A stretch of 28,737 nt of DNA from Candidatus Limnocylindria bacterium (GTDB lineage Bacteria; Chloroflexota; Limnocylindria; QHBO01): the NCBI GenBank assembly GCA_035697465.1, contig DASSCW010000189.1:1-28737 (forward strand). Reading direction: 5' to 3'. The notes under the pieces are model-generated. The model was not told where the DNA came from and did not search any database. It saw only the letters and a list, made by a program, of their open reading frames with translations. The translations under genes and the position numbers were made by a program. Below are positions 7,586 through 13,780 of this stretch, one piece after another; within the stretch, counting starts at the first letter, position 1; each line of letters starts with the position of its first letter.

Positions 7586-7613
7586 AATGACCGGGCCCGA
7601 AGGCCCGGTCATT
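7586..7613 (-). terminator. 12-bp perfect hairpin with UUCG tetraloop between precursor and cyclase (attenuator or stabiliser)
   Basis: - strand AATGACCGGGCC-TTCG-GGCCCGGTCATT, 19 nt after the precursor stop; only a short U-run follows. Confidence 0.75.
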
Positions 7614-7632
7614 GATTATGCCAAGTGAGGGG

Positions 7633-7779
7633 TCAGCTCGCGAACGGGTGCGAGAACTCCCCGTACTTGTCGGTTTCCATCACGATTTCAGACTTGTCGC
7701 CCTTGCCGGGATTGTCGAACGTGTGATCGGCGATGGACCCCAAGTCCTCGATCTCCGGCGCCTGGTAGATGATCTGCAT
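7633..7779 (-). CDS. Lasso peptide precursor, 48 aa: leader MQIIYQAPEIEDLGSIADHTF, predicted core DNPGKGDKSEIVMETDKYGEFSHPFAS
   Basis: Translated by hand (below the ORF-track cutoff). AAGGGGAG RBS 6 nt upstream; YxxP leader motif; Gly then Thr at -2; Asp7/Glu10 acceptor candidates; C-terminal Ser. Sits directly upstream of the cyclase. Confidence 0.88.
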   Translation of the reverse strand: MQIIYQAPEIEDLGSIADHTFDNPGKGDKSEIVMETDKYGEFSHPFAS

Positions 7780-7820
7780 CCCAAACTCCCCTTGTATTTG
7801 GCGGCATAGGCAAGCGCCAG

Positions 7821-7836
7821 TAGGTCAAAAGTACTA
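7821..7836. promoter_or_regulatory. Operator-like 16-mer, copy 1 (TAGGTCA-AA-AGTACTA)
   Basis: Shares the AGTACTA arm and TAG start with copies at 7992 and 9875; overlaps the precursor -10. Confidence 0.5.
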
Positions 7837-7856
7837 TGTCCCGCGGACCGCGTCAA
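7828..7856 (-). promoter_or_regulatory. Sigma70-type promoter for the precursor-cyclase-RRE operon
   Basis: - strand TTGACG (7856-7851), N17, TACTTT (7833-7828). Implies a 5' UTR of about 40 nt. Confidence 0.6.
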
Positions 7857-7981
7857 CGCAATCTGCGCACACTGTTGCCTCAGGGCAACGCCGAACTGAT
7901 GCCTGGATTAACTCCCGACAGCCAGCCCGCGTCCCCGGTGCACCAAGGCAACGGCACTGCCGCTGGCAGTCTGAAAATCGC

Positions 7982-8011
7982 TTGACTGTATTAGTACTCA
8001 AGTACTAGGTT
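7982..8011 (+). promoter_or_regulatory. Promoter TTGACT-N18-TAGGTT containing a perfect 7-2-7 palindrome (TAGTACT-CA-AGTACTA, 7992-8007)
   Basis: Same hexamers and spacing as the promoter at 9865-9894; upstream of the secreted-protein gene at 8357. Confidence 0.6.
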
Positions 8012-8356
8012 CTCGCTCCACCGGGGGACCCGAGCTGCCCTCGCTTCCGGCCAACCGCATATTCGTGCCCGAGCCCCGCGTAGTTGGCCGCCGCGCCGTC
8101 TGCCCAGACGCTGCGCTCTCGTCCGCGTTGCCCTCATCTCTTCTTCTTCGGGCTGCGCGGGATCTCGATCCCACCTAGCCCGATCAGGGAGGGAGGGTTG
8201 TGTGCGCGCCATGGGGGCGAGCACTAGGTGCGAGCAGTGCTCACAGCGCAACGAGGAGGCGAACCGAGAAGGAAGAAACGACCGAGACGGAGCTTCGGGG
8301 ACACCCAATGACGGACCGTGGTGTTTCCCACCCTCTACTAAGGAGCGATAGAACCC

Positions 8357-9553
8357 ATGACTCTTCGAGCGAACGCGCCACGGGCCAAGCGCCGCTGGAC
8401 GGCGCTGTTGGCGGCAGTTTCACTGCTTATCGGCCTAACGACGACCACTGTGCTGGCAGCACCTCCGGGCATCAGCCTCGAGCAGTGCCGCAACGGTTCA
8501 GCAGCCAGCCCCAATGACTGTGAGGACCTCGGTGGGTCGGCAGGATGGGTCAACGGTAACGTTGGCGCATCGCAGGGCCACCTCCTGGAAGGTTATTCGA
8601 TTCCTTATCGCGCCCTGATGAACAACCTGCCAGCGAACACCAACATCACCGTCACACTTGGCTATGACATCACCCACAGTGGTGCGCATGCCATCGACTA
8701 TCTGACCCACTACGACCGGCTTGAGCCGCATGGCTTCTTTGGCCACGGCGACGCCGAGGATGTCTTTCCGGTATCGGGCACCAGCGTTAGCGCGACCCCC
8801 TTCGCGACTCTTGCAATTCCGGAGCCGTCGAATCTATCGGCCGACGCCAGCGCCGGATGGGCCAATATTCCTGCGGAACAGAAGGTCATCACACTCTTCG
8901 GTGGCACCTTCCCGGCGAGCCAGCCTACGTTCTATGTCACCGAGGGCGACATCAACGCCTCGCAGTCGGAGGCTCGTGTTCAGTTCACGTTCCTGACTGA
9001 CAGCGACGGAGGTTCCGCTGTCCTGGCCTGGGGTGGACATATCGCCCGCGGCGATCATTGGGACGGCGATTCGGCCTCTGCGATCAGTGGCTCTCCGTAC
9101 CACATGCGTTTGAAGGCTTGGACTCTCGGCAACGTGGGTAACCAGGACCGCTCGCTGTCGGCAGGAGCTGTCCAGGTCGAGACCTCGACGACCACCACCC
9201 AGCCATCAGCCCAACTTACCTTCAGCGTTGCACTCAACGATCGCGCAGATGTTTCTGCCGGTGGTGGGACGGTTGAGTTCAACCTGTGGAGCACCAAGAG
9301 CGCGGATACTCCTCCGGTCTGCTCGGGGTTGCTGTACACCGAGACCGTCGCCCTTAGTGGCGGATCGGCAACGACGACTGGGACCGGATCGTTCGGCAGC
9401 AACGTTGTCGCACCGACTAGTGCAACAACGTACTACTGGACGGCGGACTACTCGGGCGACGACACGACAGAACCTTCGTCATCGCCTTGTGGCGCGGAGT
9501 CTGTCACCGTCACGCCTCCGACCATTGGACTGGTGCCTGCCCCGGCGCCCTAG
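8357..9553 (+). CDS. Secreted protein (398 aa) with a Sec signal peptide and a C-terminal Ig-like beta domain
   Basis: AAGGAG RBS; basic N-terminus, hydrophobic stretch, ...TVLA|APP; LEQCRNG...C disulfide pair; Ser/Thr/Gly-rich beta character; C-terminal TVEFNLW...C...YYWTADYSGD...PCG. Ends before a hairpin terminator. Confidence 0.75.
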   Translation: MTLRANAPRAKRRWTALLAAVSLLIGLTTTTVLAAPPGISLEQCRNGSAASPNDCEDLGGSAGWVNGNVGASQGHLLEGYSIPYRALMNNLPANTNITVTLGYDITHSGAHAIDYLTHYDRLEPHGFFGHGDAEDVFPVSGTSVSATPFATLAIPEPSNLSADASAGWANIPAEQKVITLFGGTFPASQPTFYVTEGDINASQSEARVQFTFLTDSDGGSAVLAWGGHIARGDHWDGDSASAISGSPYHMRLKAWTLGNVGNQDRSLSAGAVQVETSTTTTQPSAQLTFSVALNDRADVSAGGGTVEFNLWSTKSADTPPVCSGLLYTETVALSGGSATTTGTGSFGSNVVAPTSATTYYWTADYSGDDTTEPSSSPCGAESVTVTPPTIGLVPAPAP

Positions 9554-9582
9554 TTCCGCGGCCGCACAAACTTGGACCCGAT

Positions 9583-9610
9583 GAGGGCCGGCCCGCAAGG
9601 GTCGGCCCTC
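9583..9610 (+). terminator. Intrinsic terminator-like hairpin
   Basis: GAGGGCCGGCCC-GCAA-GGGTCGGCCCTC (GNRA loop, one G-U pair) followed by GTTCTATTT, 30 nt after the 9553 stop. Confidence 0.7.
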
Positions 9611-9623
9611 GTTCTATTTGCTT

Positions 9624-9800
9624 GCGGACTTTCATCTCCCTGGCCACCGAGCGTGTCGCGGACTTCCACGCCCAGGGCTGCGAGTTCGTCGCGTAGCCGG
9701 TCTGCCGTCGCGAAGTCTCCGGCCGCCCGCGCCGATGCACGGTCTGCCAACACGAGGCGGCTTCCTCAGGCAGGGTCGGTGATCTCGACCTCCGGAGCGT
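9624..9800 (-). pseudogene. cysS: Frameshifted relic of the cysS 3' end (second copy)
   Basis: Aligns with 12386-12564 in the same orientation. LADRASARAAGDFATADRLRDELAALGVEVRDT vs LAERASARAARDFATSDQLRDNLAALGVEVRDT (28/33 identical). Three single-base frameshifts relative to cysS; no 5' portion. Confidence 0.85.
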
Positions 9801-9864
9801 GTTGATCTGTGTCAACACTTCAACTGCACCAAGTCCCAGCTGGGAGCGGAAGTCGGCTCTGGTA

Positions 9865-9894
9865 TTGACTCGTGTAGTTCGAAAGTACTAGGTT
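9865..9894 (+). promoter_or_regulatory. Promoter TTGACT-N18-TAGGTT with operator-like copy 3 (TAGTTCG-AA-AGTACTA, 9875-9890)
   Basis: Near-twin of 7982-8011; directly upstream of the LuxR-type regulator gene. Confidence 0.6.
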
Positions 9895-9964
9895 GCCCGG
9901 ACCGAGCACCTCCGCTGCCCATCCTCGGCTCGCGTTGCCAACCTCAACCCTGGGGGACGAGGCC

Positions 9965-10834
9965 TTGATCCGCACCGGGCTGGGACAGCGAACCGCTGGA
10001 AGCCTACGAAACGCCATCGATAGCCGCTGGGCACGGCTGGTGGCCGATATCGCCCCTCAGTTCCTCGCGTTGGCCGCCGCGGCGACGATCTACGCGTTCG
10101 GACCTCCTGTTGACGCGCAGCGCGATGTGTGGGTGTGGGCAGTGCTCGCGGTCGCCTTCGCGGGACTGCGCCTGGGCACTCTGCGCACCGCCCTGGTCAC
10201 CTCAACGTATGTCCTGGACGCGGTCGGCGTGGCGATCTTCATCGGTGGCACTGGCGACGCGGAATCGCCATTCCTCGGCATCGCCCTGGCGGGGGCCTGG
10301 TGGGCGTCACAGAAGGCCGCCCGCGGTACGCTGTACGCCATCGCCTTCGCCGCTTCCTACAGCATCCTGGTGGCTCCGGCGGCGCTGCGCGAGGGACACC
10401 TCGCGGCCGTCATCTTCCAGCCCACCCTCCTCTGCATCGTCGGACTGCTGGCAGATAGCCTGCGCGCGCGCGGCGATCTGTCGCGATGGGCCTTCACCAT
10501 CCTCACCCATGAAGGGGAGAGCCAACCGGCGTCCGTCAGGGTCGGGCTGAGCCGCGTGGTCCGCGGTGGGTCGGTTCCCATCGACGTCCTGCTGACGGCC
10601 GGCCAGTTGGGCCTGACCGCGGCCCAGACGGAGCTCGTTGCGTACCTCATCCTCGGCTTGTCGAACATGCAGATTGCCGAGGCGCTCAGCCTCAGTGAGG
10701 CGACGGTGCGCTATCGGCTTACTCGGCTGTACCGCGTCCTTGGCGTGCGCGGACGAAAGGCAGCAGCGGAACGAGCCCGCGAGCTGGGCCTCGGTGATCT
10801 CGTGGGGTCCGGAGGCGGGCCAGCCGCTGTATAG
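9965..10834 (+). CDS. Membrane-anchored LuxR/GerE-family HTH transcriptional regulator
   Basis: About five TM segments, including IGGTGDAESPFLGI, then LTAAQTELVAYLILGLSNMQIAEALSLSEATVRYRLTRLYRVLGV (GerE HTH). Start uncertain: track TTG9893 overlaps the predicted -10; TTG9965 has an upstream GGGGACGAGG. Confidence 0.8.
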   Translation: MIRTGLGQRTAGSLRNAIDSRWARLVADIAPQFLALAAAATIYAFGPPVDAQRDVWVWAVLAVAFAGLRLGTLRTALVTSTYVLDAVGVAIFIGGTGDAESPFLGIALAGAWWASQKAARGTLYAIAFAASYSILVAPAALREGHLAAVIFQPTLLCIVGLLADSLRARGDLSRWAFTILTHEGESQPASVRVGLSRVVRGGSVPIDVLLTAGQLGLTAAQTELVAYLILGLSNMQIAEALSLSEATVRYRLTRLYRVLGVRGRKAAAERARELGLGDLVGSGGGPAAV

Positions 10835-10846
10835 GTCCGGGAGACC

Positions 10847-10908
10847 GCACCAGAACGTACCGATTCGCACTTTTCTAGCGGACTTGAGTATCGAGTGAGC
10901 CGTAGGAT
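10847..10908 (+). promoter_or_regulatory. Conserved promoter block, copy A
   Basis: GCACCA...ATTCGCACTTTTCTAGCGGAC (21 nt exact, 10863-10883) with TAGGAT 40 nt after the start of the 21-mer; identical layout at 11688-11749. Confidence 0.65.
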
Positions 10909-11687: not shown

Positions 11688-11749
11688 GCACCAAACCGCT
11701 CTTATTCGCACTTTTCTAGCGGACGACGAGCGTGGCGCGAGCCTAGATT
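11688..11749 (+). promoter_or_regulatory. Conserved promoter block, copy B
   Basis: GCACCA...ATTCGCACTTTTCTAGCGGAC (11704-11724) with TAGATT at the same +40 offset (11744-11749). Confidence 0.65.
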
Positions 11750-12379: not shown

Positions 12380-13780
12380 CTAGCGGCGGACGGTCGTCTC
12401 CTGGCCGTCAGGCGTGTCGCGCACCTCCACTCCCAAGGCGGCCAGGTTGTCGCGGAGCTGGTCGGACGTGGCGAAGTCACGGGCCGCGCGCGCGGAGGCG
12501 CGCTCGGCGAGCATTGCGGCGGCTCCTTCCGGCAGCTCGGTGATCTCCTCCTCGGCGGGAGCGTCAAGGCTCAGTCCCAGCACCCGGTCGAAGTCGAGCA
12601 GCAGGGCGCGCCGCTGGGCGGCGCCGAGGTCATCGGCACCTGCCACGGCATGGGCGATTGCCAGCGCGGCGGGGATGCCCAGGTCCTCGCTGATGGCATC
12701 GGTGAACCGCGCCCGGTAGCCCGCCATCGGCTCAGCCGAGAGGTCGACCGCGGATGCATCGGCTTTATCGGCCTCAGCGGCAGCCCGTCGCAGGCGCCGC
12801 AGCCCGGAGGTTGCGGCAGACATGGCGTCGTGGGTGAAGTCCAGCTTGGACCGATAGTGGGCGGTCAGCGCCAGGTACCGGAAGGCGAGTGGCTCGAATC
12901 CGAAGTCGGGCAGCTCGTTGACTCGGATGACGTTTCCCGCCGACTTGGCCATCTTGGCATCGGCCAGGGTCAGGAACTCGCCGTGCATCCAGACGTTCAC
13001 GACGGGATGCCCGGTCACGCCTTCCGACTGCGCGATCTCGTCCTCGTGGTGCGGGAACTTCAGGTCGATGCCGCCGGTGTGGATGTCGAACCGATCGCCA
13101 AGGAACTTCATCGACATCGCCGAGCACTCGATGTGCCAGCCGGGAAAGCCGTCGCCCCAGGGTGACGGCCACTTCATGAGCCGGCCAGGCTCGGCCGCCT
13201 TCCACAGGGCGAAGTCCTCCGGATCGCGCTTGTCGGTCTCGACGTCGACGCGGTGCCCGGCCCGCATCTGGTCCAGCCTCTGCCCGGACAGCTGGCCGTA
13301 GCCCGGGAACTCGCTGACGTCGTAGTAGACGTTGCCGTCGACCTCGTAGGCAAGGCCGCGCTCCAGGAGCGTCGAGGTCATCTCGAGCATCTCCGGGATG
13401 TGGTCGGTGGCCTTGGGCATCACGTCGGCGAGCGGCATGTTCAGCAGTCGCTCGTCCTCCAGCCATGCCTCGGTGTAGAACTCGGCGATCTCGGCCGGAG
13501 GCTTCCGCTCCGCCTCGGCCGCCTCGAGCATGCGGTCCTCGCCGGTCTCGCGCATGTGGCCGACATCGGTGATGTTCTTGACGTACAGCACCTCGTAGCC
13601 GAGGTATTGCAGCGTGCGGCGCAGCAGGTCGCCGAACAGGTATGTCCGCAGGTTGCCGATGTGCGCGTAGCGGTAGACCGTGCTGCCGCAGGTGTAGATG
13701 GTCACGCGCCCGGGCGCGATCGGCTCGAGCGGTTCGACCTTGCGGGTCAGCGAGTTGTAGAGGCGCAGGGTGGGGAGCAT
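12380..13780 (-). CDS. cysS: Cysteine--tRNA ligase (466 aa)
   Basis: LRLYNSLTRK, YTCGSTVY, HIGN, NITDVGH, DFALWK, PGWHIECSAMS, DIHTGGIDLKFPHHEDEIAQ, KMAKS. Confidence 0.97.
   Translation of the reverse strand: MLPTLRLYNSLTRKVEPLEPIAPGRVTIYTCGSTVYRYAHIGNLRTYLFGDLLRRTLQYLGYEVLYVKNITDVGHMRETGEDRMLEAAEAERKPPAEIAEFYTEAWLEDERLLNMPLADVMPKATDHIPEMLEMTSTLLERGLAYEVDGNVYYDVSEFPGYGQLSGQRLDQMRAGHRVDVETDKRDPEDFALWKAAEPGRLMKWPSPWGDGFPGWHIECSAMSMKFLGDRFDIHTGGIDLKFPHHEDEIAQSEGVTGHPVVNVWMHGEFLTLADAKMAKSAGNVIRVNELPDFGFEPLAFRYLALTAHYRSKLDFTHDAMSAATSGLRRLRRAAAEADKADASAVDLSAEPMAGYRARFTDAISEDLGIPAALAIAHAVAGADDLGAAQRRALLLDFDRVLGLSLDAPAEEEITELPEGAAAMLAERASARAARDFATSDQLRDNLAALGVEVRDTPDGQETTVRR

Follow-up and report, generated by a model that had tools for sequence, protein, structure and literature searches.

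A conserved TAGTAC-N4-GTACTA palindrome in promoters of Limnocylindria: putative operator of a dimeric repressor, with a membrane LuxR gene as probable target rather than reader

Promoters within a 28,737-nucleotide stretch of DNA, here called the window, carry a recurring 16-bp inverted repeat (the box) whose architecture, targets and probable reader are considered here. The window is contig C189 of a soil metagenome-assembled genome of Candidatus Limnocylindria (Chloroflexota), designated G000, of 2.1 Mb, 57% completeness and 68.8% GC. Limnocylindria are abundant uncultured soil Chloroflexota, and we know of essentially no experimental study of their gene regulation. The minus strand of the window encodes a 48-residue lasso-peptide precursor (7633-7779), which heads the genes for an Asn-synthase-type cyclase and a PqqD protein, and B2 protease and methyltransferase fusions are encoded on the plus strand. 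The plus strand also carries a 5' leader of ~280 nt (8018-8300), conserved as far as about 8274; it contains invariant blocks, one long invariant stem and a hairpin that shows covariation. It is followed by genes for a secreted protein of 398 residues (8357-9553; N-terminus MTLR..AKRRW, then a hydrophobic stretch), a membrane-anchored LuxR/GerE regulator with five hydrophobic transmembrane segments and a C-terminal helix-turn-helix (HTH) domain (9935-10834, with the start as in the protein collection; the longest open reading frame begins at 9893), two small secreted proteins, and cysS. Apart from the LuxR gene, the window yielded no gene for a regulator.

Three 16-mers were verified in the window sequence at 7821-7836, 7992-8007 and 9875-9890, exactly where an earlier note made from the sequence alone had placed them; its description of the second as a perfect palindrome, and of all three as overlapping the -10 of TTGAC(G/T) promoters of which two are twins, agrees with the hexamers as read here. 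Box 1 (TAGGTCAAAAGTACTA; minus strand TAGTAC-TTTT-GACCTA) has one perfect and one weak half-site and lies in the lasso-precursor promoter, whose minus-strand -35 TTGACG is at 7851-7856 and whose -10 TACTTT (7828-7833), 17 nt past the -35, is inside the box. Box 2, the perfect palindrome TAGTAC-TCAA-GTACTA, occupies the spacer of the plus-strand leader promoter between the -35 TTGACT (7982-7987) and the -10 TAGGTT (8006-8011), the first two bases of the latter being the last two of the box; it is the class-conserved and apparently ancestral site. Box 3 (TAGTTCGAAAGTACTA) lies in the spacer of the plus-strand LuxR promoter, with -35 TTGACT at 9866-9871 and -10 TAGGTT at 9890-9895. The leader and LuxR promoters are twins of the form TTGACT-N18-TAGGTT (7982-8011 and 9866-9895).

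The window holds three matches to the palindrome at three or fewer mismatches versus 0.04 expected from shuffled sequence, and four copies of the heptamer AGTACTA versus 0.13 expected. The whole assembly has only six 16-mers at three or fewer mismatches, and four of the six are embedded in promoters; the fourth such box, C255:94-109, has TTGACC and TAGTCT on either side and precedes a GT2-SIS glycosyltransferase/heptose operon. The remaining two are C62:1415, a box-like 16-mer with no recognisable promoter around it, and C65:320, which was rejected as an operator since it lies in coding sequence, though a box-like site recurs there in five same-genus genomes. The bare core GTAC-N4-GTAC has ten matches genome-wide, within the range of other spacings and hence not enriched, so that only the full 16-mer class is distinctive. 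All four promoter-embedded sites in G000 satisfy a sigma70-type layout (TTGACN -35 and TAnnnT -10, 16-19 bp apart), and the box covers the spacer and -10 in site 2, site 3 and C255, whereas in site 1 it lies across the -10 and start site. A simple promoter scanner reported none of these promoters, a result that is uninformative because the scanner demands a TATAAT-like -10.

The leader promoter provides the best view of how the box is conserved. The palindrome, its TTGAC and TAGGTT hexamers and the ~280 nt of non-coding sequence are 75-85% identical in G003 and G011, which belong to the same genus, and in further genera of the family; conservation of the leader reaches across genera and takes in more than 50 contigs from soil metagenomes. 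The order of the module is also conserved: TTGACN, box, TAGGTT, the partly structured leader, and then genes for variable secreted proteins. A set of 53 homologous leader promoters was retrieved from metagenomes by a leader-only signature, with no use of the box, and aligned by their -10. The hexamers are TTGACG in 34 of them and TAGGTT in 30, and the exact TAGTAC-N4-GTACTA is present in 34. Positions of the spacer half-site TAGTAC are conserved at 83, 79, 94, 89, 79 and 85%, and the central four bases carry only 0.18-0.74 bits. When the same alignment is read as two heptamers, the left seventh base is T in 47% and the right first base A in 64%, versus 79-100% conservation of the six outer bases. 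Because positions 7 and 10 are so poorly conserved, the motif is, from the alignment, a 6-4-6 palindrome TAGTAC-N4-GTACTA with a free centre, and not the 7-2-7 repeat of NarL type that had been proposed for it. Spacers are 18 bp in 29 promoters, 17 bp in 20, 20 bp in three and 16 bp in one; with 17-18 bp in 49 of 53, the leader promoters should be active unless blocked. A TGTCG motif is found ~10-14 nt upstream of the -35 of leader promoters (about 7960-7975 in the window; loci L087-L147) with ~50-60% conservation per position, and a few contigs have it as part of TGTCGCC-aac-GCGACA where the -35 would otherwise stand; the motif may be an UP-like element or the site of a second protein.

Conservation of the box also extends beyond the leader. 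In one sample of 251 Limnocylindria genomes the exact palindrome occurs at ~71 sites in 60 genomes, versus seven matches to a reversed-palindrome control. Four of the 60 genomes are unpublished (G017, G181, G191 and G221, with one palindrome each), and the tally without them is 56 of 247; G017, the source also of locus L014, enters the tallies of leader conservation and of the LexA search as well. The motif is above its background frequency both in the window and class-wide, and the suggestion of a mini-regulon in the earlier note is supported: the boxes are non-random, lie on sigma70-type promoters and behave like the operator of a small regulon. Bases of promoter spacers are not normally constrained, and a conserved, free-centred palindrome at positions where RNA polymerase reads no specific bases is the signature to be expected of a dimeric DNA-binding protein. 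A contrary explanation would be that the element is no transcription factor site at all but was inherited or copied together with its promoter, the additional G000 sites resembling it by way of their -10 sequence. The right half-site does overlap the -10 in sites 2, 3 and C255, the left half of site 1 contains the -10, and leader and promoter are inherited as a unit. However, the TAGTAC of the spacer is more conserved than its flanks and the central four nucleotides, even though the surrounding spacer bases differ, and the palindrome recurs in unrelated promoter contexts of other families at about tenfold above the control; a promoter-intrinsic origin is therefore very improbable.

Orthologous loci, the comparison that the earlier note had suggested, retain the element at the leader and GT2-SIS promoters and, more loosely, at the lasso promoters. 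At the GT2-SIS promoter the element is TTGACC-gac-TAGTAC-tttc-GACCTA in G000, TTGACC-cat-TAGTAC-tact-CGCCTA in G011 and TTGCAC-atc-CAGTAC-gtaa-GTCCTA in G003. Lasso-precursor promoters of four genera carry GTAC-type inverted repeats 14 nt past the -35, e.g. CGGTAC-TTTG-GTACCG in G043; the TTGACN-N14-box layout of the G000 promoter is found also in G011, G043, G080 and G099, and TAC(T/C)TT is kept as the -10 in the orthologous promoters. A further site in G011, which reads TTGAAT-cgtg-TAGTTCCCGGGTACTA and lies at the stop codon of cysS, has no evident function in a promoter.

In the other families the palindrome stands in different surroundings. It is found in family f2 (L184, L185 and L189, the first from the unpublished G221) between a GGACTATAGG element and radA, directly upstream of the latter, and in family f3 (L165, L168-L182, L013) it is paired with a conserved GGACTATAGG element. 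The f3 box is ~340-355 nt upstream of the gene for a ~380-residue membrane protein, an arrangement seen likewise in G004 and G007 of family f1.

The question of which protein reads the box bears first on the membrane LuxR protein. NarL/LuxR-family (GerE-type) HTH dimers bind short inverted repeats of 7-2-7 form, and the proposal had been that a dimer of the adjacent membrane protein occupies the boxes, controlling its own gene and repressing those of the lasso precursor and the secreted protein together. In keeping with this, the box resembles NarL/LuxR heptamer pairs in being a ~16-bp inverted repeat able to overlap promoters with a GerE-type gene nearby, and that gene is the sole regulator gene found in the window. 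Members of the LuxR family, which has more than 100 soil-metagenome homologues, often occupy the same syntenic slot, as in L073, L074 and L075 beside the leader and secreted-protein genes; and a box is present in the gene's own promoter in G000 and upstream of its homologues in G112 and G127. Nevertheless the protein is unlikely to be the reader. Homologues (full-length, E<=1e-15, in the same class sampling as the palindrome) are found in 11 of 251 genomes, all of family f1, and coincide with the palindrome in three, i.e. 57 of the 60 palindrome-bearing genomes have no homologue at this threshold. None was found in families f2 and f3 at E<=1e-15; the tally presumably includes the four unpublished genomes, and none of these is among the 11 matches. 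In G003 (92% complete), G024 (95% complete) and the contiguous G011 locus the box is perfect and no full-length LuxR homologue was found.

Where the gene is present, the box does not follow it closely. The four closest LuxR orthologues have the common recognition helix SEATVRYRLT.LYR, with a promoter box in G000 only; the LuxR promoters of L073, L074 and L075 read TATTGACG-N16/17-TAGGTT and are box-free despite near-identical recognition helices. In some lineages the LuxR gene stands directly behind the leader, and in these (G114, L097, L129, L145) the box is degenerate; the 3.7-kb locus of the G022 homologue has no box-like site. Unlike NarL/LuxR sites, moreover, the box has weakly conserved positions 7 and 10, i.e. 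its conservation is of 6-4-6 form. Because box and protein rarely co-occur and the orthologous promoters are box-free, the membrane LuxR gene is better read, on this comparative evidence, as a recurrent target than as the reader, and the binder and autoregulator of the earlier note becomes a regulated neighbour of a box that is conserved independently of it. Autoregulation may still occur in lineages that have the gene, since G112 and G127 carry the box upstream of it. Two other kinds of local gene may be mentioned. Small upstream genes that recur at leader loci were considered as readers and rejected, being confined to one lineage with degenerate boxes. The G011 gene just upstream of the leader promoter (L062 6779-7669) encodes a membrane protein that weakly matches an HTH domain at its C-terminus; this protein is analogous to the LuxR protein in architecture and unrelated to it in sequence.

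A parallel to the box is found in the LexA operator of the same organism. The lexA promoter of G000 (TTGACA-at-AGAACgcatGTTCG-gc-TAGCAT) has its LexA box in the spacer, and SOS boxes of the form TAGAAC-N4-GTTCTA are found upstream of lexA, a dnaE2-like PHP-domain gene, uvrA and others (positions C225:1348, C225:4483 and 4514, C347:1112, C300:4203 and C117:7009). The leader box and the LexA box occupy the same spacer position and are one symmetric base per half-site apart (TAGTAC vs TAGAAC). The Gram-positive "Cheo box" CGAAC-N4-GTTCG is of the same kind, a 16-bp 6-4-6 palindrome with a free centre between the -35 and -10 of a TTGACN promoter; with the same geometry and spacer position in its lexA box, G000 itself offers a precedent for such a layout as a repressor site. 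Cyanobacterial LexA boxes have the consensus RGTACNNNDGTWCB or AGTACWNWTGTACT (PMC3091678), which box 2 fits letter for letter (AGTAC-N4-GTACT). LexA, which is present in almost all class genomes searched, might on these grounds also recognise the GTAC boxes, as SOS operators of an alternative or low-affinity kind, and so link the expression of surface-protein, envelope and lasso genes to DNA damage, and the f2 palindrome directly upstream of radA would suit such a role. The two classes of box never mix, however: 19 of 19 lexA promoters from families f1-f3 have GAAC-N4-GTTC in the promoter spacer, whereas a GAAC/GTTC half-site in the LexA orientation occurs in 0 of 53 leader promoters. Unlike the cyanobacterial case, Limnocylindria LexA has an essentially invariant recognition region resembling that of B. 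subtilis, and the operator of its own gene is of GAAC type. Nor does the box in f1 stand in a DNA-damage context, its targets there being secreted, envelope and ribosomally synthesized and post-translationally modified peptide genes (the secreted protein, the GT2-SIS operon, the lasso precursor and the LuxR gene) rather than repair genes; in f2 the box precedes radA. No conserved LexA paralogue and no cyanobacterial-type LexA was found. Since the classes never mix, a reader different from LexA is indicated, and regulation of the GTAC boxes by LexA is judged quite improbable. A second S24-peptidase (LexA/UmuD-like) protein, C25:1-420, was considered as a box-reading paralogue and set aside, being found only in G000; its N-terminus is cut by the contig end and it has no close orthologue in 40 related genomes.

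The same GTAC-N4-GTAC core also lies between the promoter hexamers in the Tn501/Tn21 Pmer operator of MerR, CCGTAC-ATGA-GTACGG, where the -35 is TTGACT, the -10 is TAAGGT-like and the spacer is 19 bp (PMC11049809). By this precedent a MerR-family regulator would bind the spacer dyad and activate by DNA distortion upon a signal. Such activation needs a spacer of 19-20 bp, though, and promoters with 17-18-bp spacers are reported to be constitutive and almost unaffected by MerR (PMC11049809), whereas 49 of the 53 promoters here have spacers of 17-18 bp. The dyad here is moreover ~5 bp nearer the -10, which it overlaps, its outer bases are TA rather than CC/GG, and no MerR gene is linked to the loci. 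A MerR-type activator is accordingly about as improbable as LexA.

The boxes are most readily read, with a moderate degree of confidence and from comparative sequence evidence, as operators of a putative class-wide dimeric repressor of Limnocylindria, of which the LuxR gene would be a regulated neighbour. A dimeric Limnocylindria protein would bind the 6-4-6 palindrome TAGTAC-N4-GTACTA, and its occupancy of the spacer and -10 (sites 2, 3 and C255) or of the -10 and start (site 1) would exclude RNA polymerase. Repression is proposed because the box covers the spacer, -10 or start of otherwise near-consensus sigma70-type promoters. The ancestral target would be the promoter-leader module that drives variable secreted or surface proteins, to which the regulon of G000 would have added the GT2-SIS/heptose envelope operon, the lasso precursor, whose site is the weakest, and the membrane LuxR gene, the last being a lineage-specific gain, with one reader common to all sites.

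Several observations weigh against a single repressor of this kind. The full palindrome in G000 is confined to the leader site; sites 1, 3 and C255 have one good half-site each, and that half-site partly doubles as the -10, so that the similarity may be partly a promoter constraint. The TAC(T/C)TT of the lasso-promoter repeats is likewise also the -10, and in other genera the flanks (CGGTAC) or the spacing (G093) of these repeats are different, which leaves it uncertain whether the lasso promoters there have the same reader. The f2 and f3 sites, standing in other contexts, could have a different reader. Guilt by association across the 53 leader loci found no transcription factor family that tracks the box. 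Finally, soil metatranscriptomes readily yield the precursor mRNA, so that site 1 is not under tight repression in situ.

Soil metatranscriptomes give hints of where the transcripts begin. Four such studies contain contigs that match the window at 100% identity over 7617-7814 on the minus strand, and contigs of the precursor mRNA from three studies have 5' ends at 7808, 7812 and 7814, each running into adapter, versus a predicted start at ~7821. A leader contig of a relative starts at ~8028 (predicted ~8018), and a contig identical to the window starts at ~9922 (predicted ~9902, from the LuxR promoter); as ends of contigs rather than mapped 5' ends, all of these are hints of start sites. At each of boxes 1, 2 and 3 the RNA contigs start a short way downstream, and no contig spans a box. 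In four runs there is no RNA cover over 7843-8004 and most of 8248-9624, which is not evidence of silence. The lasso transcript seen is a precursor-only species of ~195 nt, whose contigs stop at 7617-7620; just past this stop lies a conserved GC-rich hairpin (7591-7611), placed between the precursor and cyclase genes.

The leader that follows box 2 is of interest in its own right as a candidate new cis-regulatory RNA. Rfam 15 gave no match to it at the gathering score in a search of the window, the sole match at E<=1 being a chance microRNA. Its invariant stem is formed by GGCCAACCGC...GCG.TAG.TTGGCC, and 44 sequence variants form a second hairpin, whose inner stem takes 13 different forms, whose loop is mostly GCCC and whose mean z is -1.7 versus shuffles. 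Since the minimum free energy of the whole leader is no better than that of shuffles (z = -0.37), and RNAalifold on a MAFFT leader alignment recovered only the invariant stems, support for structure comes from the local hairpins. A profile search found no second copy of the leader in G000, and the 5' untranslated region of the LuxR gene was not detected as a leader. The genes behind the leader encode variable secreted proteins with a common N-terminus, one homologue consisting of SpaA/prealbumin-fold repeats; the 398-residue member in the window has no Pfam family.

More speculatively, palindrome and leader might together form a two-layer module, a DNA operator followed by a new structured RNA, for hypervariable surface proteins throughout Limnocylindria, the operator being an offshoot of LexA-box specificity that is read by a novel regulator or by a second mode of LexA. 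This is a tentative and rather doubtful extension; were it true, it would be a natural case in which operators of one genome have diverged by one base per half-site. Apart from this, near-identity to the organism's own LexA box makes the palindrome a clean natural case for how operator specificity stays separate. The analysis supplies a sharply defined operator, TAGTAC-N4-GTACTA, found class-wide, with named target genes (variable secreted and SpaA-like surface proteins, an envelope glycosylation operon, a lasso precursor and a membrane LuxR protein) and a conserved leader RNA without a known family, and both operator and leader can be tested directly by means of synthetic DNA and heterologous proteins. 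The attractive and probably wrong assignment of the neighbouring regulator as the binder is also corrected, which matters for attempts to activate the lasso cluster in a heterologous host.

The LuxR gene itself lies in a cassette with signs of past duplication. A decayed minus-strand duplicate of the cysS 3' end at 9624-9792 is 76% identical to 12386-12553, and the two copies bracket the LuxR gene and the two small secreted-protein genes. This cassette is not present in G003 and G011, and the LuxR gene is in the same slot in L073, L074 and L075. Within it a repeated 21-mer (ATTCGCACTTTTCTAGCGGAC) is found at 10858-10880 and 11699-11721, upstream of the small secreted-protein genes (11059 and 11892), and translations of open reading frames suggest that DNA similar to this repeat is present in a G114 locus.

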